Assembly (NCBI GenBank): GCA_037379345.1
Contig: CM074511.1
Location: 64,982,862-65,046,861 of the forward strand
DNA from: Perna viridis
Lineage: Eukaryota
Reading direction: 5' to 3'
DNA length: 64,000 nucleotides
Made by a program: the position numbers and the translations under genes. The notes under the pieces were generated by a model that searched no databases, had not been told where the DNA came from, and was given only the letters and a program-made list of their open reading frames with translations. Positions 8,101 through 61,442 of the stretch are shown in pieces. Positions within the stretch are counted from its first letter, which is position 1; every line of letters starts with the position of its first letter.

Positions 8101-11100
8101 GGAACCAGTTGAATGTAAACAAGGAAATGTCAACCTCAAGCTGTTCAAAGTGGGCATACAGTCTTGGTAACTTTTCATGGAGCAGGTCTTTCAAAACTCT
8201 CTGTTAATAAAATGAAAGAATGTATTAAACTCTACAATGGTATCATCTCTGTTATAGCTCTCTTTTGTTATAAAGAAATATATTATAAAAACAATCTTAA
8301 TGAAAAACTCTTTCAGTTATCAACGCATTATTTTTAATACACATGATCAACCAACTCAAATACAACCAAAACAATATTGTTGAATGTGAAATACATATAG
8401 TGGTTAAAAATAAATGAATCAATATTCTCATTATCATTGTTATGGTAATTTAAGGATAGAGGCACCATCAAAAGAGATGAAGGAGGATCTGGGAATCAAG
8501 AAGCAATATTAAGATGACATACACACCAAAAACTAAACAGTATTGGAAGCCCTTGACATATGTTGGTTTGAGAAAGTGCCTGTGATTTCTGGTATAATAT
8601 AAACTAACCTGATCCACCTGAGCTGCCAGTAGAGATTTACTATAGTAATCTGTGGGCATGATGAAATCTACAATGGCTACCAAGCACCAGAAAGCTTCCT
8701 CCTCTGGTAGAAACAATAAGGTAATTGCTGCTAGTCTGTTCAGACCCTGAAAAATAATGTGTTTTAAGTATACTTTTGTGTACATTATACACCAGGCTTG
8801 CTAAATAAGACTAATAGGACCTACATAACAACAATCAATGTTTATCGATTATCGATATGCAAAATTTACACTGTACCATACTGTACCAGATAGCCAATGA
8901 CAGAATTATGTACAATGGCAACCATTTTTACTGTATTAGATTGTGACAAAACTTACCTGACATAGCCAATGACAGGATTATGTACTATGACAGCAATATT
9001 TACTGTACAAGACTGTGACAGGACTTACCTGACAATAGCCAACGACAAGATTTTGTATAATGACAGCCATTTTTACTGTATTAGACTGTGAGAGGACTTA
9101 CCTGACAATAGCCAAAGATAGGATTATGTACAATACAGCAGTTTTTACTGTATAAGACTGTGACAGGACTTACCTGACAATAGCCCGTGTTTGTTTGTTT
9201 GTTTGTTGGGGTTTAATGTCCGAGCAGCAATATTTCAGCAATATTCAGACAATGAACATGAAATGGATGATAAAATGAACATGAAATGAAAAAAAAAAAA
9301 GGATGGGTCACAAGGATAATAGGGTCGACAAATTTTGATTGCCACTGGAAAAAGGGGGATGGGTAAGGTTGGGCAATTTAGCCTCCTGTGGCGGAGCGCA
9401 AAGGTTCCTACTCCTATCGAATACCACAGCAGGGTTCTTTAACGTGCGAGGAACGTGGCATCTTTCCCAACACGGTGCACCACTATGGTTTGCGGTCAGG
9501 TTTTCCGTATTATAGCCTGACAATCCCAGCATTCCACCACCTGGGGCACACATCCAGTTGCTCTGTGGGCAGAGCGCCTAGCCCCCGGCTAGGTTTCTGA
9601 GCACTATTTAGTCGCCTTTTACAACAAGCTTAGCGCTGCTGCAGGCCTATTCTTTTAACACCCGGACCTGCATGGGTACAATAGCCCGTGACAGGATAAT
9701 GTACAATGAAGTCATTTACACTGCATAAGACTGTGAAAGGACTAACCCGACAATATCCAATGACAGGATTATGTACAATGCAGCCGTTTTTATTGTATAA
9801 GTCTGTGACAGGACTAACCTGACAATAGCCAATGACAGCCATTTTTACTGCACAAGATTGACAGGACTTACCTGACAATAGCAAATGACAGGATTATGTA
9901 CAATGCATCCATTTTTACTGCATGAAATTGTGACATGACTTACCTGACAATAGCAAATGACAGGATTATGTACAATGCAGACATTTTTACTGCATAAGAT
10001 TGTGATAGGACTTACCTGACAATACCCAATGATAGGATTATGTACACTGTAAGCCAACAACACTTGTCGTAGTTGTTCTATCCCTTTACTTTCTATGCTC
10101 TCGAAATGTCTGTTGTTTGGTAAGGTTCTTAATAGATCAAGTTCTATCTGAAAAGTCAAATGAAAAATTAATTCTTACTGCTATTTCTGTGTAAATGATG
10201 CATAAACTCATCTTTAATGTTGTTGCTATTATCAAACAAAAGCAAAAAATTATAGAATGGCATTTCCTAAATATTTCTTTACCATTAGACCATAACAGTT
10301 TCGTTAAAATTTGCTGAAGAATGTTGATTCACAGGTGATAAAAAAATTATAAAATAAAACCTTGACCTTAAAATTAACAGGGTTAAAATTTTTCAAGGAC
10401 TAGTTCATTAAAGCTGCATTAGCTGTCATTTTTGTAAAAAAATTTCTGTTGAAATATGCCTTAATTCTACTAAATTGTACTTTTCCTATAAAATTTCATT
10501 CATATCCACAAATGAAATGTGTTAAATACATGAAATAGGTGTCTATATATTTATTGTCTTGCAAGACAAAAAATCGACCTAGATAAATTTGTATGCATGT
10601 GACTTCTGGTGACCTTAATTCACGCCTGTGCTGTAAGGGTTGCTTTTTCAAAAACAAATCTGATTGTAAAGCGAAAGTGGTTAATCAATGGCAAGAAAGA
10701 CCATTGGACTCGAGCCGTAAACGAAAACAGTTCAAGTATAATGCAAGGATCCTTTTGAAATTTACGTCTTGTGATATAATGTGGCACAAATATGGTCAGT
10801 AACTGTCATTATTTATTTGATAACTAATCAAGAAATAGATATCCGTAGTGTATCCGTTATTGTTATTTTTTTTTCAAAGTTTACAAGTTTAAAGTATTTT
10901 TAACCTGGGTTAATGTCCTGTTGGCAATCTTTGGAAGTAATGGCGAAAAATAATTAGATCTGAGCTATCGATCTTCTTTGATTGAAAAAAACATTTTTAC
11001 AATATTCTGTAGGTATTTTCGACATTTATTGCTTCAACTGCATTACTACAAACTTATTTCATTTTATCAGCTTTTTTCAGTAGAATCAAAACTGAACAAA

Positions 11101-44393: not shown

Positions 44394-45936
44394 CGAAATC
44401 GGCGGTTAGATTAAACTAGTTTCATCTCCCGTTAATTATAATGTAAGGTAAAAAAATATCTAAAACAACTCGTTTATTTGAATAAACATACCATAAAATT
44501 CACTCAGTAATAAACCCAATTCTCACTACGAAATACCTCAACACACACGATATAAACAAAATGAGATATCCACTTAAAGAATGCTAGCAGTTACTGAAAG
44601 TTAACTCAGAACATTAGAAACAATCGGTCATTATAAGTGGACAAGATTTGGAGAAGTAACAGGGACTGTATTCGGTCATACACCATTCCGCTAACAGGGA
44701 CTGTATTCGGTCATACACCTTTCCGTACTTATGAAAGTTAATAGGTAAACTAACACTCGTTTAAAAATGGATATCCGGGCAGCTCTGCAAAATAATATTA
44801 AGTAAATCGAAAGACATGCGAGTGTATTAAATAATTACAATAAAGAGAACGTCGAAAGTAATCATACTAACTTGCTTTAATGATAAAAAAACAAAAACAA
44901 AACTAGAGATGAAAAGGTTTATCCAATTCATGTTTCAAATTAACTGTGAAAAAAATCATTTTGGATCTTAATATCCCGTAGTTAAAAAATTACTTATGCT
45001 TCGGTAAATGTTAGAGTTGCTTCGGTCATTTAAACTGTTCAGCAAATAATGTGCTTTTTAAAGTCGTATTTGTACATTGAAACTTATATAAACAAATTTA
45101 ACTTGGTACATATTCGCAAAAGAAGTTCAATTAGTCGATAACTTAAGTTAGATATTGTGTATCAGTTGTAACTCTTTTCTATTGAAACATCAACATGAAG
45201 GATAATTTAAGTCTCAGACTGACCTTACATGTAAAATGCGATTTTAGAACAGGTAAGGTTTTATATCATAAATACAAATTTTATTTGTCTTGTTTTTGTA
45301 AGTGCGTGTACCATTTATGTCCCTCGTTTGTATTATTTTCAAAATTTAACAGGGCAACAACTGTCAACCAAGAGTTCATGCTTAATGTACATACAAGTAT
45401 GTTATGTTTGACACTTTTCATTTTGATAAAGAAACTGTTTGATCTTACAAGACATCAGTAAACACATGTACAGGACTCATGCCACACCTTTTGTCTAATA
45501 TTTGAAGAAAACCCATCAATTACTGAATAGCAACAAAAAAATCACTTTTGACGATAGATAGCGTTATTTTATTCTTCTCTTCAAAAACTAAAACTAGCCC
45601 ATTAAAAACAAACTAGATCTAGTAATCATTGAAGATGCCAGAACGTAATAAGAGCTCGTTTTAATTAGATTAACCAAGACTGCTGTTCACTACCAAAAGT
45701 ACGTAGTCCATTTTCTTTGGCTCTTCTCAAGCATTCTGTGTTCAAAATGTTTAAGAGTTCAAATAAGGGTAGGGAAGAATATTACGAGACGAAAGTACAC
45801 AAATACAAGTACATGTAGTTAATTTAATAGTATTTTCAAAGGAACCGTTTTAGTATAATAAAAATCTCTCGTTCCTTTTAGGGTGTGGCAAAATGGAAAC
45901 GATAATTTCGAGGAAAATGATTATGACTATGTAGAA

Positions 45937-47703
45937 ATGTCAGAGAGGCCTTCGATCAGCAATGCCAACGCGTGGTTGGGACCGAGAAGCACAACTCAAA
46001 TTAGGACAGACTATCATTCGAGCAGACCTCTTTCGTCAAAGAAGAGAGTAGTTCATTTGCCAAATACCATACCAGGAACAAAATATACCGAATACACATT
46101 TGGCAATTCCAATTCAGGAAATTCAAAAGGGCCTATATTGTTCGATAGTCCGCATGTAGCCAGAGTATCTAGTCATCCAGGAGTAACATTTCCAAAACTA
46201 CAAGGGACTCATATTTCAAGCGCTAAATCCAATGAAAACAAACACTCTGCAAAAGAAAAGACAGTGCCGTCAACCCCTTTAGAAAAGCTAAGGATAGAAA
46301 ATAGACAAAACACGTCTGAAAGTATTATAAATAGGATTCTTACCCATGCCGAGCGATGCCGAACACGTGACACTATCAGAAAAGGATCTCCACGGACAGG
46401 TTTGACAAATGATAACTGCTTCGACTACATTGTCATCAAGTCCTTCACCAACAAAAAAGCAGAAATGCGCCACGCAATTAATAAAATAATACTAAGTAGC
46501 AAGAAGAAAGCACCGCTGCCAATATCTCCGCATTTATCAGAAAATATATTAAGACAAGCCTCTCCATATTCACGAACAACTTGCTCATCACGGGGTACTG
46601 ACAGTTCATCTGGGCGCCAATCCGCTAAACAGGAGCGAAGAGTATTTGCAAATAGCGCTTTATCAAAGTATGACTCATGTAATAGCTTGAATAGTTTCCA
46701 CAGGCACAATAGTAGTCTGAAAAACTGTTACAACAGCGATCGGCATGGATTTTCAGATTCGGCTAACAGCAATTGTAGAAAGACTGACAGAAGTAAATCA
46801 GGAACAAACAATAGTCTTAAACAAAAAGATCGGTCATTCACACAGCCGATTTTACCGAAACTCATTACTGGAAACCCGTCCTGTATGTTCAGATTGAACG
46901 GCCCGATTTTGCTAAGTGCTCCACATGGTCTCAAAATTTGGCGCGGTGGAACAGACGGTCGCAGGAGAAGAATTCACTATCGCGAGATTTATGTCACTGA
47001 AATAGTCATAAAATTAGCTATGGAAATTAACAAATACGCGGGATATCCAGCAAGTTTTATTATATGGGACAGAAAAGTAGCTATGCCAGCGGATTTCAGA
47101 AACTTAGATCCTAATTATTTGACAGAAAAACAATTCCCACAATCACCTTGGCACGAAGCGCTAGAACGGTTTAAAGCACATGGACAGGACAATAAAATGC
47201 CGATACTACATATAGATGTTCATGGAAAGAAAGACAGGAAAAATAATATGGACATTGATGCTGGTTTTCGTGCAATGGAAACGCGTTGGCCAGACAAGAA
47301 GTTCGTTGAAGGATTTAAGGAAACCACACATAAAGCATTCACGAAAGTGTTCAGTGACCCATCTTATGAAAAACGAGGGATGAAGTATGCCATAAATGTC
47401 GATCCCCTTTTATGTGGAGATTGGGGTGGGGATTTATACACGATGACTTGCCAGTCTGTTTGTTTAGGGGTGCCGTCATTTCAATTGGAAATTCCACGAA
47501 CAGTAAGAGCTCGTTTAGTTGAAGACGATGACTTTACTTCAAAGTTTGCTAAAGCAATAATAGATATATACGCAATATGTATACAGAAAGACGCAAAGCT
47601 ACCTTCTGTGAAGGGCAGCGATGTATCGTCAAATACTTTCCTTCAGAAAATTTACAACGACCATCTAAAAATCGAAAAAGCATTTCCAGAAAAGCAGATA
47701 TAA
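45937..47703 (+). CDS. Uncharacterised protein: Ser/Arg-rich N-terminus + C-terminal zinc hydrolase domain (N-formylglutamate amidohydrolase / poly-gamma-glutamate hydrolase-like)
   Basis: 1.8-kb uninterrupted ORF behind an acceptor at 45881 (TTCCTTTTAG); first in-frame ATG 45937. Motifs ILLSAPHG, RE, LHIDVHG, FQLEI match the PH...E...DxH...QxE pattern of this fold. Probable upstream exon ending at 45252 (AG|GTAAGG). Family assignment is motif-based. Confidence 0.7.
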   Translation: MSERPSISNANAWLGPRSTTQIRTDYHSSRPLSSKKRVVHLPNTIPGTKYTEYTFGNSNSGNSKGPILFDSPHVARVSSHPGVTFPKLQGTHISSAKSNENKHSAKEKTVPSTPLEKLRIENRQNTSESIINRILTHAERCRTRDTIRKGSPRTGLTNDNCFDYIVIKSFTNKKAEMRHAINKIILSSKKKAPLPISPHLSENILRQASPYSRTTCSSRGTDSSSGRQSAKQERRVFANSALSKYDSCNSLNSFHRHNSSLKNCYNSDRHGFSDSANSNCRKTDRSKSGTNNSLKQKDRSFTQPILPKLITGNPSCMFRLNGPILLSAPHGLKIWRGGTDGRRRRIHYREIYVTEIVIKLAMEINKYAGYPASFIIWDRKVAMPADFRNLDPNYLTEKQFPQSPWHEALERFKAHGQDNKMPILHIDVHGKKDRKNNMDIDAGFRAMETRWPDKKFVEGFKETTHKAFTKVFSDPSYEKRGMKYAINVDPLLCGDWGGDLYTMTCQSVCLGVPSFQLEIPRTVRARLVEDDDFTSKFAKAIIDIYAICIQKDAKLPSVKGSDVSSNTFLQKIYNDHLKIEKAFPEKQI

Positions 47704-50077: not shown

Positions 50078-53000
50078 TCAAGATGATAAAGATTTCAAAA
50101 ACTCTTCAGCTTTTTCAGTTGACCATCCAAACATTAAAGGAGATTTCACAGTCTGTATATATTTTGTCAAAAAGTCTTTTCCAATTGCTTTAGCATCAAA
50201 GTCATTAGCAGTTCGATCTGCCTTTTCACAATACCAGTAGCACATTTCACCAGCATACATCATGCCTAATAGGTGTGTGTCACTGTATATTCCTGAAAAT
50301 AATCGGTATCACACATTATACATGTACACGTAAATTTTAGTTATTTTGGGTATAATAAAATGTGATGCATATTAAATGATAATACTGAAATAGCAATATA
50401 AATAACAGTATTTAATATTAATTCAAACATTTCATATTTTTAGGATTGTTTCAAATTTCACAAATAATGCAAGTAAACTGCCACAAACCAGGTTATTTCA
50501 TATAGGCAGTTAAAAAGTTTTAAAACATTCTTCTATAATTTAATTTCAAATGGATTCGCCCCGTGCAGGTCCGGGTGTTAAAAGAATAGGCCTGCAGCAG
50601 CGCTAAGCTTGTCGTATAAGGCGACTAAATAGTGCTCAGAAACCTAGCCGGGGGCTAGGCGCTCTGCCCACAGAGCAACTGGGATGTGTGCCCCAGGTGG
50701 TGGAATGGGGTACCCCTGGCATGTTACATGCTGGGGTTGTCAGGCTATAATACGGAAAACCTGACCGCAAACCATAGTGGTGCACTGTGTTGGGAAAGAT
50801 GCCACGTTCCTCGCACGTTAAAGAACCCTGCTGTGGTATTCGATAGGAGTAGGAACTACTGCGCTCCGCCACAGGAGGCTAAATTGCCCGACCTTACCCA
50901 TCCCTTCCTTTTTCTAGTGGCAATCAAAATTTGTCGACCTTACTGTCCTTGTGTCCCATCCCATTTTTCATTTCATCATTTCATGTTCATTTTATCAACC
51001 ATTTCATGATCATCGTCTGAATATAGCTGAAATATTGCTGCTCGGACGTTAAACCCCAACAATCAATCAATCAATCAAATGGATTCCAATTCAAATATCA
51101 ATTATTGATCTGTAATGAAGACATTGTTTTGTTTAGGATTATTTGAAATGCAGAGTGTGGACTAGTCAACGTTAATGATGTCACAAAGCAAAGTTGGCTG
51201 GCATGAAGAAAACTAATCAATCAGAAAGCTTGTTACAAATCAAACTGAATTATACATGTACAATGTATTTGCATAACTGAATGTTCACATGATTTAAAAT
51301 TATCTAATATAAACATCTCAAAGATCAAACTTAGTAAGCAAGAGCCACTGATTTTAAATAATATGCACATGAGATATGTAAGACAATAGAAACACTTTTA
51401 CATCATTGGAATATTTACATATGATTGTCTATAACTTCACTGAGATAAAGGAAACCTTGGAAAGTTTAAATATTTGTTGATTCAGCATAAAAACAAAGAA
51501 TCAGTCTTTACTTAATGAGTAGAAAAAATAATTTTACATCAAAATAAAACATCAACTATACACAAGTGAAACAATGTAACCATTGACCTACCCATATTAG
51601 CTAACCATCTACCTACCAATATTAGCTACAATAACCATTGACCTACTCATATTAGCTAACCACTGACCTACCCATATTATCTACAATAACCATTGACCTA
51701 CCCATATTATCTACAATAACCACTGACCTACTCATATTAGCTACAATAACCATTGACCTACTCATATTAGCTAACCATTTACCTACCCATATTAGCTACA
51801 ATAACCATTGACCTACCCATATTAGCTACAATAACCATTGACCTACTCATATTAGCTACAATAACCACTGAGCAACCCATATTAGCTACAATAACCATTG
51901 ACCTACTCATATTATCTACAATAACCATTGACCTACCCATATTAGCTACAATTACCATTGACCTACCCATATTATCTACAATAACCATTAACCTACCCAT
52001 ATTAGCTACAATTACCATTGACCTACCCATATTAGCTAACCATTTACCTACCCATATTAGCTACAATAACCATTGACCTACCCATATTAGCTAACCATTT
52101 ACCTACCCATATTAGCTACAATAACCATTGACCTACCCATTTATCTACAATAACCATTGACCTACTCATATTAGCTACAATAACCTCTGAGCAACCCATA
52201 TTAGCTACAATAACCATTGACCTACTCATATTAGCTAACCATCTACCTACCCATATTAGCTACAATAACCATTGACCTACCCATATTATCTACAATAACC
52301 ACTGACCTACTCATATTAGCTACAATAACCATTGACCTACCCATATTAGCTACAATAACCATTGACCTACCCATATTAGCTACAATAACCATTGACCTAC
52401 TCATATTAGCTACAATAACCACTGAGCAACCCATATTAGCTACAATAACCATTGACCTACTCATATTAGCTAACCATTGACCTACCCATATTAGCTACAA
52501 TAACCATTGACCTACCCATATTATCTACAATAACCACTGACCTACTCATATTAGCTACAATAACCACTGAGCAACCCATATTAGCTACAATAACCATTGA
52601 CCTACTCATATTAGCTAACCATTGACCTACCCATATTAGCTACAATAACCATTGACCTACCCATATTATCTACAATAACCACTGACCTACTCATATTAGC
52701 TACAATAACCACTGAGCAACCCATATTAGCTACAATAACCATTGACCTACTCATATTAGCTAACCATTGACCTACCCATATTAGCTACAATAACCATTGA
52801 CCTACCCATATTATCTACAATAACCACTGACCTACTCATATTAGCTACAATAACCACTGAGCAACCCATATTAGCTACAATAACCATTGACCTACTCATA
52901 TTAGCTAACCATCTACCTACCCATATTAGCTACAAGCTTGTTACAAATCAAACTGAATTATACATGTACAATGTATTTGCATAACTGAATGTTCACATGA

Positions 53001-56000
53001 TTTAAAATTATCTAATATAAACATCTCAAAGATCAAACTTAGTAAGCAAGAGCCACTGATTTTAAATAATATGCACATGAGATATGTAAGACAATAGAAA
53101 CACTTTTACATCATTGGAATATTTACATATGATTGTCTATAACTTCACTGAGATAAAGGAAACCTTGGAAAGTTTAAATATTTGTTGATTCAGCATAAAA
53201 ACAAAGAATCAGTCTTTACTTAATGAGTAGAAAAAATAATTTTACATCAAAATAAAACATCAACTATACACAAGTGAAACAATGTAACCATTGACCTACC
53301 CATATTAGCTAACCATCTACCTACCAATATTAGCTACAATAACCATTGACCTACTCATATTAGCTAACCACTGACCTACCCATATTATCTACAATAACCA
53401 TTGACCTACCCATATTATCTACAATAACCACTGACCTACTCATATTAGCTACAATAACCATTGACCTACTCATATTAGCTAACCATTTACCTACCCATAT
53501 TAGCTACAATAACCATTGACCTACCCATATTAGCTACAATAACCATTGACCTACTCATATTAGCTACAATAACCACTGAGCAACCCATATTAGCTACAAT
53601 AACCATTGACCTACTCATATTATCTACAATAACCATTGACCTACCCATATTAGCTACAATTACCATTGACCTACCCATATTATCTACAATAACCATTAAC
53701 CTACCCATATTAGCTACAATTACCATTGACCTACCCATATTAGCTAACCATTTACCTACCCATATTAGCTACAATAACCATTGACCTACCCATATTAGCT
53801 AACCATTTACCTACCCATATTAGCTACAATAACCATTGACCTACCCATTTATCTACAATAACCATTGACCTACTCATATTAGCTACAATAACCTCTGAGC
53901 AACCCATATTAGCTACAATAACCATTGACCTACTCATATTAGCTAACCATCTACCTACCCATATTAGCTACAATAACCATTGACCTACCCATATTATCTA
54001 CAATAACCACTGACCTACTCATATTAGCTACAATAACCATTGACCTACCCATATTAGCTACAATAACCATTGACCTACCCATATTAGCTACAATAACCAT
54101 TGACCTACTCATATTAGCTACAATAACCACTGAGCAACCCATATTAGCTACAATAACCATTGACCTACTCATATTAGCTAACCATTGACCTACCCATATT
54201 AGCTACAATAACCATTGACCTACCCATATTATCTACAATAACCACTGACCTACTCATATTAGCTACAATAACCACTGAGCAACCCATATTAGCTACAATA
54301 ACCATTGACCTACTCATATTAGCTAACCATTGACCTACCCATATTAGCTACAATAACCATTGACCTACCCATATTATCTACAATAACCACTGACCTACTC
54401 ATATTAGCTACAATAACCACTGAGCAACCCATATTAGCTACAATAACCATTGACCTACTCATATTAGCTAACCATTGACCTACCCATATTAGCTACAATA
54501 ACCATTGACCTACCCATATTATCTACAATAACCACTGACCTACTCATATTAGCTACAATAACCACTGAGCAACCCATATTAGCTACAATAACCATTGACC
54601 TACTCATATTAGCTAACCATCTACCTACCCATATTAGCTACAATAACCATTGACCTACCCATATTAGCTACAATAACCATTGACCTACTCATATTAGCTA
54701 CAATAACCATTGACCTACCCATATTATCTACAATAACCACTGACCTACTCATATTAGCTACAATAACCACTGAGCAACCCATATTAGCTACAATAACCAT
54801 TGACCTACTCATATTAGCTAACCATCTACCTACCCATATTAGCTACAATAACCATTGACCTACCCATATTAGCTACAATAACCATTGACCTACTCATATT
54901 AGCTACAATAACCATTGACCTACCCATATTATCTACAATAACCACTGACCTACTCATATTAGCTACAATAACCACTGAGCAACCCATATTAGCTACAATA
55001 ACCATTGACCTACTCATATTAGCTAACCATCTACCTACCCATATTAGCTACAATAACCATTGACCTACCCATATTATCTACAATAACCACTGATCTACAC
55101 ATATTAGCTACAATAACCATTGACCTACCCATTTTAGCTACAAAATGTACAATAACCATTGACCTACCCATATTAGCTAAGTCTACAACAGTTTGTTCTC
55201 CTTCCCAATTGATATTACTATTGCGAACCATTGACCTACCAATGTTAGCTACAATAACCACTGACCTACCCATATAAGCTTACCACTTACATACCCATAT
55301 TAGCTCCAATAACCACTGACTTACCCATTTTACCTACCCATATTAACTACAATAACCACTGACCTACCCATATTAACTAACCATTTACCTACCCATATTA
55401 GCTACAATAACCACTGAGCAACCCATATTAGCTACAATAACCATTGACCTACCCAGTTTAGCTACAAAATGTACAATAACCATTGACCTACCCATATTAG
55501 CTACAATAACCATTGACCTACCCATATTAGCTAAGTCCACAACAGTTTGTTCTCCTTCCCATTTGATATTACTATTGCGAACTGACAACATCTGCTGCAG
55601 AAGCTGGATGCCTTGTTTCACATCCTATGAATATTTAATCAGTTTTTTTTAAAGTAAGTAAAAACTAACTCATGTCTGTCATTTACTTTTTATGAATATG
55701 TTTATTCAACAAAAACACAAATCTGATAATATATTCTCTCACATTTCTACTTAATATGATTTTCATAAATGTATCACATTTTTTTTATGCCCATACATTT
55801 AATAAACAATAAACAAATCTTTTCTGAAAGAGCTTGGAAGTATTAACAAAGTCTGAAGTTATCAGCCATATACATGTACTGCTTGAAGATGAAGAACACA
55901 TTTTCACTTGTATTGTTAGACTGAAAAGTCAGAGAATTTCTGATTTATTTAATTTTTTCATAATTTACAAGCACAATATAGGCTAGAATAATTTGCTTGC

Positions 56001-59000
56001 AAGCATTCCTATAGAATTCTCAATACAATCTCAACATAGTTTACAGTACATTTGACTTATATAGTACATTATACCCCAAGTCCCTTTTTTCAAACTTAAA
56101 GAAACCTTGCAACAAGACAAACAGACAAAAAATAGTAAAAAAAAACTTTCAGCCATACAAAGAGAGACAGCTGAACAGTGAGATAGATGGGAAGAGAGAC
56201 ATACGGACAGAGAGACAGATGATAAGAAACAGATGGGCAAAGAGACCGATGACCAGCGACAGATGGACAGTGGTATGCTATAATATGGTAAATCAGAGGA
56301 TGGTCATAGAATTAAAGTATAATTAATTGGAAAGAGTGAATAAGTAAAATATGATCATGAGTGTGCAAGAATGCCAAGATTTAATGAGTGACATCAAATA
56401 AAATGAACGTCACATCAGAAAAGTGTTGCGATGTTTTGAATAGAGAATGTCCTAGAGACAAATAACAAAATTTATTTCATACATGTATGTGAATTATTGA
56501 AATTTATTACACAAGGAACATTTGATAATTCATTAATATCTATTTCATATAATAATTTTCTAAATATTTACCTCAAAAAATTCATCATTAATTTCTTTTT
56601 TCCTTCCATCATTTTCATGTATCATATTACATAACATGTACAACAGTGCACCCTTTCTCCAGTAAACACATTCTACAATTTCATGGCCTAGAGTTTCAAT
56701 TATCTGTAATAAAACATATATTGATTTAAGAACTTTAGTGAGCCAACATATGTACAGGTATCAAATTCTAATCAATCACAATGTAATTGAAGAACAAAAT
56801 TTCCCCAAGCTTTGAAGTATCTAACCACATTTATGAAGCTAAAAAACCCTAAATAATTATTGTTCATAAGCTACTACTTTTATGATTTTCATGAATTGGT
56901 TGTATCACTAATTCATAAATCAGATTCCCAAAATATCTTTTAAACTCTCCACTTAAAATTAAAATGCTCATACAAAATTCACAAAATAAAAACCTCATTC
57001 AGTAAAGAAATTTGGATTAAGAATGAAATAAATACTGTGTACAAAAGTAACATCTCAGTAAATAGGAAAAGGCAATATATGGCACTGCTTCCTGACTCAC
57101 TATATATAACTCTGCTAGTTTATAAGCTGTGCTATATAGGATGTAAAAAATTGACCAGACATGAGAACTTCTCATAACAAATCTTCGAAGCTATGTCTGT
57201 TGTACTGTATTAATTTGCATACAAATGTGGAGTTGAGTACTTAGTATGTCAGATGAGTTAAGCTTGGAAACATCAAAAATACCTCTATGCAGGAGATAGG
57301 ACACATGAACAGATGCATTGACAGATGGGTCAAAATCTTTCATTCCTAGTAATCATTTTACTATTTTTTGCACCATTTTTAGCAATAAACCACAGAGGGC
57401 AAATTCAGAAACTTATAAAAATGTATGATGTTTCTAAGCTATCATTTGCTTATCTCTGCCTAATCTTTACACAAACTAACAAAAGAAGGGTTCACAATCA
57501 CCAGAACCATTCCCAGGATCTTCCACTAGACTAACTTACAGATATGCTTGGTAAATATCTATTCTTCAATTCTTCTATTGTGTCAATCCAAACTGAAAAG
57601 CATTAATTATGGTTTTATGAATGTGGAAATAATTAATTTCAATCACTTTTCTCGCATGAAAATGTAAGTAAATAAATTGTTAAAAAGCTAACAAAATGAA
57701 TAACCAAAATTTATGTTTAAATTTATATGTATGTTTAAATTTTTTCACTCATCTTGCAATAGATAAAAAACAATGAACTGATATTATCCCCAATAATAAA
57801 ACCATTAAATTCATTTTTCACTGATTTATATTTACACTAAAAAAAAATCATTCTCTTCCAAATATTAATTTAAAGAGTAGGGGAGATAACTATCTATATA
57901 TATTTTGTTATCTTGGCCTATTTTTAGAGTTCAACCTAAATAAGATTTATGAAGATGTATTAAAAAAAAAACAGTAACAGTAAATATACTTACAAAAAAT
58001 TTCATGTACCCTGTCCTTGGATGATGCTTCAGGAAATTCCTGTTCCACAAGCTTACATTCATCACTGTATGTGAAATCCAATACAATCTGAAATGAATGA
58101 CCCCAAAATCATCCAATCAATATCCAGTTTAAAGGTTAATTAACAAGTTTAAAATAAAATGAAACCATATAATGTAGATATTGATAAATTGCAAAATTAT
58201 CAGAAAAAAGACTCATATTTATTTTTGCTTTGATGAGGACAGCAAATGTATCATTATTTTCTAACAGTTATCTGAATCTTTCCATGAGTTTTGAAAAAAA
58301 AAGAGTGAACTGAACTGATCATGTGATTCTTAGCGACCTTGAATCATCTCATGAATAAACTAAATGTTTTAGTAGATTAAAGACTACACAACTCGCTACA
58401 AACAATATATCTTATTCATGCAGATTGGTTGAGAAACAGGTCAAATAGCTTAATAAGAGTGTTTCTAGAATTCATTTATCTCTTATTACGGATGGTTACA
58501 TGCATATGTTGCATGGAATAAGAAAATGCATTTAATTCATTATAAAGACCAAAATATTGTTTGAGAGATCTGGTGATTCAATAAGCAATCATTCATTAAA
58601 ACATGCATACTGTTGATAGTGATTTTATATCACAGTAAAATCTATATAACAAATCCCCTTGAAGCCTGACAAGTTTCATTGATCAAGTGACTGATTTTCT
58701 CAGGCTTCAATTCATAAAAACAGATGTGAACAGATTTTTCAAAATGTTTCATTTTTACACATTTCCAGTTTAATTAGTTTAATCAGTTGTTACCTGTGCA
58801 TACAATTTTAACTGCTCTTTTACTTCATCATCTGTGACATTTTGAGAATTTTCAAGTATATTACTGCTGCAGGAACATTTATCTCTGACCTGCTTCAATA
58901 TTGGATCATCTACAATAAACCATAAATCAGAAACATTTTAATTCAGAATCTGATACATACAGCAAATGTTGCACTGGTAATAGTATATGTGTGGCTCATG

Positions 59001-61248
59001 TTTTGTATGGAATTTATTAAAGAATGTAGGATTCAACAGACAACAATTGAGAGAGACTGACAACTCTTATTCACGTGATGCAAATTATATTTTTCTTATA
59101 CCGATATATGCAAATTGTTTAATAAATAATATTAAAATTTAAATAGATGTAACATTAAAAACAAAGAATTTAAGCTTTATCAGAAGAATCTGCTATAATT
59201 GCACATTTTAGTGTCTAAATATTGTCATATATTTTTAATGTTACAAATTTTCTATATCAAGGCCAAAAGTCAATGTTATATTTTACTCAAAATGTCTTTT
59301 TACTCCTTGTTGAAATTGTACATTTGTAATTTTTTAAGCATATGGTTAATAAAAAAGAATATAGAATATATCTATATAAAAATAGACTATCCTGTGCGTT
59401 GAAAAAATAATGCAACTACAAGTTAATTGAGTGTATCAAAGTCTCACAATTCAGTTCCATGTACTGTATAAAAAATTACCATAAAAATAAAGAATTTTTG
59501 TCAATTTACATTAAATATTTATACTTTAAAAAAAAAATATCAAAGAACTAAGAAGTCTTAACCACATGTATGACTTGTACTATTGGATACTTTATTTTTC
59601 TGCTTAACACCCTTATGTAGTTTATTGCCCACTAGTTTACACAAAACGTACCTGTGTTAGACATGTAACAAAAAGATGATTCAATCAACATATGATAACC
59701 AAGGAATTCTCACCATGCAATTTAACTCATTTTCTACAAATGTATTAATTAATCAATATGGACTAGGTAGCACTGGAAATTTATCAGCAATGATAATTGA
59801 TTATTTTTTTTTGTTAATGCCTAATTTTCTTAATCGCAAGACTTCTCATCATACCTTGACTACAAGTGTACAAACAATACATCTACTGCGCTATATCAAG
59901 GATTTTTATAGTAGAATATATGATATGCTATGTCTCTATATTGTGTTATTTGACACTATAACCTTGGTTCCCTTTATTACTATTTTGCAATGTCTTATTA
60001 TGACATCTGATGGATATATTGATGTTGAATGTGAGTGCCCCTGCAGGACCATGATTGGATTTCAATAAAATTTGAATTTAGTTGTTTTGACTATCATTGC
60101 AAAACTCACATGAACATGACAACCAACCCCTAAGGGATTATGTTAGTAGCTGCTGCGAGCAATAATCCAAGTGTTGGGGATAAAAAAAACTTAATATACA
60201 CTGACACTGTACCTCTTATTTTTCTATTATGAAAATCCTTGATCCAAAAACAAAAAAATCAGAGTAGGTACTACATATTGTACTAGCTGATGGGCTGCCA
60301 GTGAACAAAAGCAAGAATTTTAATAGTACAAGAAGAAGAACTGTTTTTTCACCAATAAAGGGCCCATAAAAGGGCATGATTACAATACATTTTTTTTTTA
60401 CATACAACAGTTTTGATTTTACAGATATAATAACATATAATATCAACAGTTAATTTACAAACTAAATAATTGTCACATTTTTTAAGCTTTTACTTGCATT
60501 CTGAGTAATACATCATAGTAATCAGCACATAGTGTTTAGTTATCATACTGGCACACCTCAGTTTCATTTACAAAATTGGATTATGATAATGGAGATTATA
60601 ATTATGATCATCAAATTATTATATGAATAAAGAATGTAAATGTATATTCACTTAAGGGCATATCTATTTGCAATAGTGATAATAATGAAAAAAAAAAATA
60701 AATAAATAAATGCCGTGGACATAATTCTCACTAGAAGCCTCCTTGTGCCCAGTGCAGAGAAGCAAGTCTTTTGAGTTGCTTCAAGACAAAGGACACCAAG
60801 GGACGGTGCTCTAGGCTTCAATTATGAAAATTAAGGATCAAATTTGCATATATTGGGCTTTTAATTACCCAAAATTCTTACATTACATATTACAATATAA
60901 GCAGAAAAAGATATGGGAAGATATTAATGATAGACAAAAAAAAATAATAATAAATAACATATACACATGTAGTCTACTATAAAAATCTTTGGCAAATCGA
61001 AATTACTATGGCAAATATAACCATATGTCGATTTGAAAAGACATTATGTACTAGCCAACTATTACTTGTGGCACACTTGTCTATCAAGCCCTTTTGTCTT
61101 TTCTCATTTTAAAAATTATCTAGCTCCCTCTTAATTTCACCAAGAAAAAAAATTAAGATATAGGAGCATTTCATTTACCGCTAGATGTTAAAGTCTTTTC
61201 ACATAGCTGTCTAATTTGGAGAAGCTTTTCCCCAATAGTAGAAGACAT
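50078..61248 (-). CDS. RIMOC1: RAB7A-interacting MON1-CCZ1 complex subunit 1 (C5orf51 homolog), 7 exons, ~260 aa
   Basis: Phase-consistent exons 61179..61248, 58794..58909, 57994..58087, 57540..57592, 56572..56703, 55522..55624, 50078..50292. Motifs LYAQIVLDFTY..KLVEQEFPE, ECVYWRKGALLYM and GIYSDTHLLGMMYAGEMCYW match C5orf51/RIMOC1 as I recall it. Confidence 0.88.
50558..51074 (+). mobile_element. Full-length SINE-like retroposon, copy 2, (AATC)n tail, 12-bp target-site duplication
   Basis: TSD TCAAATGGATTC at 50546..50557 and 51075..51086; tail GGACGTTAAACCCCAAC(AATC)n. Confidence 0.9.
51226..54641. repeat. 1708-bp direct tandem duplication (unique intron DNA + minisatellite)
   Basis: The sequence starting AAGCTTGTTACAAATC at 51226 recurs at 52934; identical ORFs are offset by 1708 (51779/53487, 52243/53951). 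Confidence 0.9.
51578..55533 (-). repeat. 30-bp minisatellite built from the RIMOC1 exon-6 donor site (two blocks)
   Basis: Unit TTATTGTAGCTAATATGG|GTAGGTCAATGG (minus), with 25-bp variants; continuous with the true exon end at 55522. Confidence 0.92.
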
Positions 61249-61442
61249 CCTTGCTTTGGTGATATCAGCTGATTACTCCCCTTTGACACGGAAAAATATT
61301 GTTCACCGTAATTGTGTCATTGTAAAGATTATTTTTTCACCAATGAAAATTTTCCCATTTCGATAACTAAGTGCGAGACTGTTTTGTTTTTGTTTACAAC
61401 GTGGAGGACACACATATTGAACTTTGCTAAACCAGTAGCCCA
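61249..61442. promoter_or_regulatory. Probable bidirectional promoter between RIMOC1 and the IQ-motif gene
   Basis: Only 194 bp separate the two divergent ATGs; CCAAT near 61340 and a forkhead-type TGTTTAC near 61391. Confidence 0.6.

Follow-up and report, generated by a model that had tools for sequence, protein, structure and literature searches.

The gene encoding RIMOC1 lies on the minus strand of a 64,000-nt stretch of the Perna viridis genome (contig CM074511.1 of assembly GCA_037379345.1, positions 64,982,862 to 65,046,861). This stretch is hereafter called the window, and its own coordinates are used throughout. Most of the sixth intron of the gene is occupied by a tandem array that repeats the exon-6 splice donor. 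Seven exons were defined by spliced contigs of sequencing runs that carry no RNA annotation and are presumed to be RNA; their contigs skip introns with CT..AC ends. Runs X11, X13 and X20 represent three studies; the figures of a further run, X12, are near-identical to those of X13 and were not counted as independent. Exon 5 (E 3.8e-12) and exon 7 (E 4.9e-14) match the Pfam family RIMC1 (PF17716), which confirms the identity proposed in an earlier sequence-only reading of this DNA. The Pfam search gave no match for exons 6 and 2, and 55522-55624 is assigned as exon 6 because the RNA contigs give seven exons. The closest named homologue is a RIMOC1-like protein of Mytilus californianus, with 66% identity. 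Two homologues (P0001 and P0003) lack the exon-5 segment, which suggests that an exon-5-skipped isoform may exist in other mussels; the contigs of this species show no exon-5 skipping. The parts of the gene are as follows.

56572..61262, minus strand: RIMOC1 exons 1-5 (joints with CT..AC ends in three runs), located separately and approximately at 61180-61262, 58794-58909, 57994-58087, 57540-57592 and 56572-56703.
55522..55624, minus strand: exon 6, 103 nt, ending in phase 1 (contigs of X11, X13 and X20; translation).
55516..55524, minus strand: authentic exon-6 donor TGG/GTAGGT, with intron base 1 at 55521; the sole donor seen used (contigs).
50078..50292, minus strand: coding part of exon 7 up to the stop (Pfam PF17716, E 4.9e-14; RNA contigs).

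Intron 6 (55521-50293; 5,229 nt) starts with GTAGGT, and its donor has a position weight matrix (PWM) score of 4.1, the same as for the 64 TGG/GTAGGT sites counted. The array extends on the minus strand from 55533 to 51578. It had been read as starting exactly at the exon-6 boundary, which is correct with respect to the donor; the first unit begins 12 nt inside the exon, at 55533 and not at 55624. Each unit is composed of 12-13 nt of the end of exon 6 and 12-18 nt of the start of the intron. Tandem Repeats Finder (TRF) reports a period of 30 with 122 copies, and our own parse yields 123 donor-like unit starts, 105 of which begin with GTAGGT. The proposed copy number of roughly 120 or more is thus reproduced, and falls to 76 if an exact internal duplication of 1,710 nt is counted once. 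The array covers 3,944 of the 5,229 nt of the intron (3,591 nt once a unique insert is subtracted), so it does fill most of the intron, as proposed, and is split by approximately 350 nt of unique sequence. Its main parts are listed below.

53287..55533, minus strand: array block 1, with 30-nt and 25-nt units; mixed, more diverged units adjoin the exon.
51578..52933, minus strand: array block 2, an exact copy of distal block 1; its last unit merges into unique intron.
52934..53286, no strand assigned: approximately 350 nt of unique intron brought to the middle of the array by the segmental duplication.
51226..54643: perfect tandem duplication, in which 51226-52935 recurs as 52934-54643 at an offset of 1,708, with 2 nt of overlap where the copies join.
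55166..55228, minus strand: extra copy of the final ~60 nt of exon 6 within the array, 97% identical.

The segments of the array are not uniform. Ninety-one are 30 nt and 24 are 25 nt long, accompanied by two of 39 nt, two of 29 nt, one of 13 nt and one of 72 nt; the remainder are a segment of 379 nt that contains the unique DNA and a terminal one of 32 nt. In the interior, a 145-nt higher-order repeat is formed in which a 25-nt unit occurs at about every fifth position. A TGTAG motif ends 9 nt before the next donor in 93 of the 123 segments, which confirms the acceptor-like motif first described. The commonest unit is indeed a multiple of three, but the 25-nt units scramble the frame, so the 123 starts are divided 47/40/36 among the three frames relative to the first donor. 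Genome-wide searches covered the 723-Mb genome in 46 contigs, with the window on contig C1. All 73 matches to the unit at up to two mismatches fall inside the RIMOC1 array, which indicates that the unit was born at this donor. In X11, a contig departs from the array at 55464 with a 23-nt unit variant that has no counterpart seen in the assembled array; the variant perhaps belongs to another allele or another locus.

In spliced contigs of all three studies, the first donor (55521) is joined straight to exon 7 without an insert. One unbranched contig per run (X11, X13 and X20) spans all upstream junctions, and its loose end at 55521 reads exon 7. The 884-nt contig of X11 carries exon 6 at 479-581 and exon 7 at 580-884, and the 920-nt contig of X13 carries them at 480-582 and 581-920 (pieces matched by length and depth in both runs); these positions abut, with no space left between them for inserted sequence. 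The exon 6-exon 7 junction is likewise free of an insert in four full-length homologues, and a fifth lacks exon 6 sequence. Among the loose ends listed, none was found at the array donors 55491, 55452 and 55392. In X13, five contigs that fit two places give the first array units an extra depth of 36.4, which probably reflects an intronic background of 2-3 summed over approximately 120 copies. No new intron and no copy turned into an exon was found for the duplicated segment, since exon 6 joins exon 7 directly and the homologues are colinear; the earlier suggestion of a new intron by tandem duplication is accordingly not borne out.

These observations on unit anatomy, confinement to one locus, donor use in the main transcript and mixed frames are best explained, with good confidence, by a locus-specific minisatellite that straddles the exon-6 donor, of which the assembled mRNAs use the first donor only, and which is probably a neutral product of ordinary replication slippage. 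A comparison of the exon end with the terminal unit reveals two TTA triplets that flank the donor 25 nt apart. A first slip between these triplets would generate exactly the 25-nt unit, and further slippage with unequal exchange could then have led to the variant of 30 nt, the higher-order repeat of 145 nt and the duplicated 1.7-kb block. The copies would remain silent if, as in human F7, the spliceosome chooses the donor farthest upstream among several identical ones. With the original donor still in first place, its duplication would carry little cost, and such arrays would therefore persist and grow. When an acceptor is duplicated, the copies precede the original, and the cost may be higher.

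Several observations weigh against this reading, both at the locus and across the genome. Contigs lose rare variants, so rare isoforms are unseen, and the loose ends were seen only in part; the authentic donor is followed by three strong in-frame donors at distances of up to 129 nt. The first-donor scanning rule was shown in mammalian cells and not in molluscs, and the human 6-16 and CBS genes use their nearest pseudo-donors (PMC1557585). Genome-wide, three exact copies of CAGGTAAG at 30-60-nt spacing were searched for, giving 287 matches versus 77, 119, 126, 112 and 43 for five controls; the first control is the motif backwards, and those with 119 and 112 matches have the same composition and the same sample count (33 each). 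Distinct arrays, counted by hand over the range from C1 to C4:35.35 Mb common to all three lists, number 33 for CAGGTAAG versus 17 and 14 for controls (P=0.002), and a second donor motif gave 271 versus 128 matches. An exon-like stretch ends at the first copy in 10 of 13 inspected arrays (the first 13 of the 33, those with loci) compared with 8 of 45 single copies (P=1.5e-4). In the blind sample described below, the part near chromosome ends has 4 donor-type arrays among 57 versus 1.2 expected (P=0.04 at one of two thresholds). The random-place background for an exon-like stretch is 59 of 791, and four of the 13 inspected arrays have strong Pfam matches. The acceptor motif TTTTCAGG, 4.7 times commoner, forms 28 arrays in the same range. 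None of eight inspected acceptor-motif arrays precedes an exon, against a single-copy background of 21 of 196, so no depletion is shown by this count alone.

These data bear on a more ambitious alternative, in which the donor is a mutational hotspot where sequence, transcription or spliceosome pausing seeds tandem duplications, the RIMOC1 array still being silent. This is possible, and we hold it tentatively at best. It is favored by the excess of CAGGTAAG triples and of distinct arrays, by the exons that precede 10 of the 13 donor-motif arrays, and by consensus units, 18 of 88 of which reach a donor PWM score of at least 5 versus 10.3 +/- 2.6 after shuffling. It is also favored by the presence of a donor array in each of three neighboring genes, an RNase H1-like gene, a TBC-domain gene and RIMOC1. 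The RNase H1-like array (L022:7684-8347, approximately 2 kb before the window) contains 13 copies of a 51-nt unit that copies the exon end and donor; the exon has a weak Pfam RNase_H match (E 0.025). The array of the TBC-domain gene (8890-10046, minus strand) has a 72-nt unit and nine sites that resemble donors, and an insert of approximately 490 nt interrupts it. The recurrence proposed in the sequence-only reading is therefore supported by the TBC and L022 arrays and by the CAGGTAAG arrays, but targeting of donors by a junction-amplifying process is not demonstrated. At a PWM score of at least 6.5, the excess among consensus units shrinks to 3 versus 2.1, and the motif test leaves donors confounded with a broad tendency of arrays to lie in gene bodies.

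A blind sample of 1.8 Mb, comprising 1.4 Mb (200 kb beside the window and 12 preset 100-kb blocks) and 0.4 Mb near chromosome ends, argues further against a hotspot. For donor-type and acceptor-type arrays, 157 arrays away from stretch edges were compared, by means of a home-made exon caller, with a local null sampled within each array's own 100-kb block. Donor-type arrays number 10, 6 and 4 at three thresholds versus null values of 6.3, 4.0 and 2.6 (P 0.09-0.25, non-significant). Acceptor-type arrays number 3, 1 and 0 versus 6.4, 4.4 and 2.9 (lower-tail P 0.06-0.11), a borderline deficit that fits a costlier acceptor duplication; acceptor-type arrays do exist, as at L016 in this mussel and at BflGb6 in amphioxus (PMC3087553). 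In the first 1.4 Mb, an ab initio exon test gave no enrichment (4 of 100 versus 3.6; 1 versus 2.8; 9 versus 9.2). A donor array occurs at only one of 376 called exons, and the distance profile of array ends around these exons is flat, with no peak at the donor. The caller recovered the TBC control and missed both RIMOC1 exon 6 (acceptor score 0.6) and the RNase H1-like case; the power of the blind donor test is therefore low. By eye, donor-type arrays look real at loci L022, L063, L140, L231, L232, L236 and L240, and an acceptor-type array at L016; Pfam supports the exons at L063 and L232, and weakly at L022. Candidate exons beside arrays, searched in three sets, gave one strong match among 16 together with a weak RNase H match, 4 of 13 at E<1e-6, and 1 of 4, and short exons often give no Pfam match. 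The same caller placed 19 false exons in the RIMOC1 array; splice-donor arrays can thus mislead gene finders.

The prediction that periods divisible by three are over-represented genome-wide fails. In the blind sample, such periods account for 61 of 180 pooled arrays with a period of 10-200 and at least three copies (P=0.87; 40 of 111 in the 1.4 Mb and 21 of 69 near chromosome ends). Among the 33 arrays of the genome-wide donor-motif search, whose periods were read by hand, they account for 7-9. The proposed overlap of tandem repeats with donors receives a divided answer, with an approximately twofold excess over motif controls, and 10 versus 6.3 (P=0.09) in the blind sample. Arrays that span a donor are frequent in this genome and are probably in some excess. 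The size of this excess is disputed between the approaches, being approximately 1.5x and non-significant in the blind sample versus approximately 2x by motif, which implies more at true donors; neither approach can tell an effect of donors from a general bias of arrays toward gene bodies. It is doubtful, and offered here as conjecture, that donor-copying minisatellites number hundreds to low thousands genome-wide and clearly outnumber acceptor-copying ones because duplications start at donors several times as often as in other intronic DNA and duplicated acceptors are purged. If true, this would represent a genome-wide footprint of 5´-to-3´ splice-site choice on repeat evolution and would offer a naturally occurring set of loci on which donor scanning could be examined outside mammals. 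Minisatellites reach 17 per 100 kb at 1-3 Mb from contig starts (L203-L242) versus 8 elsewhere in the sample (L003-L142).

An assembly artefact in part of the array, with the 1,710-nt duplication written twice and a true allele of approximately 76 units, is unlikely. The two copies of the block, which splits the array and accounts for 47 of its unit starts, show zero mismatches over 1,710 nt, and a contig of the DNA run X1 breaks at 51242-51244, off the duplication junction at 51226; both would be consistent with an artefact. The junction itself lies in unique sequence with only a 2-nt overlap and no gap. In X1, the contig depth over the duplicated unique part is 168.6, and six other long contigs lie at 83-119; this agrees, if weakly, with one duplicated allele. 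In X3, a DNA run of another sample, a contig ends 13 nt past the exon-intron boundary, as expected of a repeat at the donor, which makes an artefact unlikely for the array as such.

Still less probable is a use of the nearest copies like that in human 6-16 and CBS, which would yield minor in-frame isoforms or a micro-exon of 9 nt. The nearest units had been read as open in frame with the exon, and this holds for the first four of them.

55385..55521, minus strand: in-frame read-through of the first four units to a TAA; candidate donors at 55491, 55452 and 55392.

Downstream starts that are in frame and stop-free are limited to four (+30, +69, +99 and +129 nt), since a stop lies in unit 5, and the +99 start is a dead, degenerate variant, GTTGCT (55422). 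The largest possible in-frame ladder would therefore add 10, 23 or 43 residues. The three candidate donors equal the authentic donor in PWM score. The acceptor-like site of the unit scores 3.7 versus 0.6 for the true exon-6 acceptor and is close in sequence to the true exon-2 acceptor. Recursive splicing and micro-exons are recognized by the use of internal AG/GT sites, which is seen as intermediates, lariats or 9-nt inserts. The 9-nt insert is absent from the main mRNA in the contigs, in which splicing intermediates are invisible. Use of nearest pseudo-donors has a precedent (PMC1557585), but here each run of the three studies yields a single unbranched contig over the junction, the loose ends listed include none at the downstream donors, and the homologues carry no insert. 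The isoform ladders, micro-exons and recursive splicing envisaged in the sequence-only reading thus find no counterpart in contigs, which cannot show rare isoforms. A long in-frame ladder is ruled out by the stop in unit 5, and a dispersed satellite or transposon origin of the unit by the 73 of 73 matches at one locus.

Other features were observed in the window. A very high-copy interspersed element resembling a short interspersed nuclear element lies in RIMOC1 intron 6 (50558-51078); its summed contig depth is approximately 8 million in X1, and it is abundant in the putative RNA runs too. The insert of approximately 490 nt in the TBC array resembles this element, by eye and reversed. Two further arrays (14299-14482 and 17147-17887) begin 57 and 75 nt downstream of donors of the TBC-domain gene without covering them. 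An intronless open frame of approximately 680 codons, presumably similar to alpha-L-iduronidase, is nested in an intron of this gene (21826-23863, minus strand). Another intronless open frame, of 613 aa (45862-47703, plus strand), gave no match in the Pfam search, and a broken reverse-transcriptase region resembling a long interspersed nuclear element was read by eye at 29540-32490 (minus strand).

The RIMOC1 array belongs to a described class of splice-boundary minisatellites and is a large but ordinary member. It is a head-to-tail array with the authentic boundary in the first monomer and the splice signal in most copies, its unit is locus-specific, and the authentic site is used in the main mRNA, as judged from contigs. 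A further trait of the class is a copy number that varies between alleles or cells; at RIMOC1 contigs break at the array (X3), and the depth in X1 and the one loose end in X11 are no more than hints of such variation. The nearest parallel is intron 7 of human F7, in which a 37-bp variable number tandem repeat (VNTR) of 5-9 copies has its first monomer over the exon/intron boundary (PMC1557585). The donor-spanning class listed with F7 includes 6-16, CBS, lamin B2 and PDGF, with up to about 25 copies, and 50 constructs of the F7 VNTR revealed oriented scanning, in which the upstream donor is chosen among identical ones (PMC1557585). F7 and RIMOC1 share a boundary-spanning first monomer, identical pseudo-donors after it and use of only the upstream donor, and their donors are alike (UGG/gugggu in F7, TGG/GTAGGT in RIMOC1). 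In contrast to the F7 class, the RIMOC1 array has 123 copies with units of several lengths, and it contains both a higher-order repeat and a duplicated block.

The 'mirage' minisatellites of amphioxus, described in Adh3, the globins BflGb6 and BflGb9, troponin C and PGBD5, consist of a tandemly duplicated exon-intron boundary with units of 10-160 bp and are thought to be general in the amphioxus genome; no effect on normal splicing is reported (PMC3087553, PMC3902484). Mirages and the RIMOC1 array both have diverged units at the boundary and a homogeneous interior. The RIMOC1 array differs in its occurrence in a mollusc instead of a cephalochordate and in its far higher copy number. The amphioxus globins duplicate both boundaries, whereas donor-type arrays outnumber acceptor-type arrays in the mussel samples. 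A literature search, with subscription papers outside its coverage, found no genome-wide count of donor arrays in a mollusc. Intron modifications driven by ITR have been described in human paralogs (PMC2812944), and in the Rogers model introns are gained by tandem genomic duplication of exonic sequence (PMC3443670). In both accounts, as at RIMOC1, tandem duplication multiplies AG/GT signals. Unlike in the Rogers model, the sequence duplicated at RIMOC1 is the donor of an intron already present, its copies lie within that intron, and neither a further intron nor a further exon is seen. As a silent intronic repeat, bigger than the published examples compared here, the array itself matters little. 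The genome-level pattern, with donor-type arrays common and acceptor-type arrays seemingly scarcer, might matter more, and, as far as assembled transcripts show, the RIMOC1 array carries the first-donor rule of human F7 over to a mollusc.

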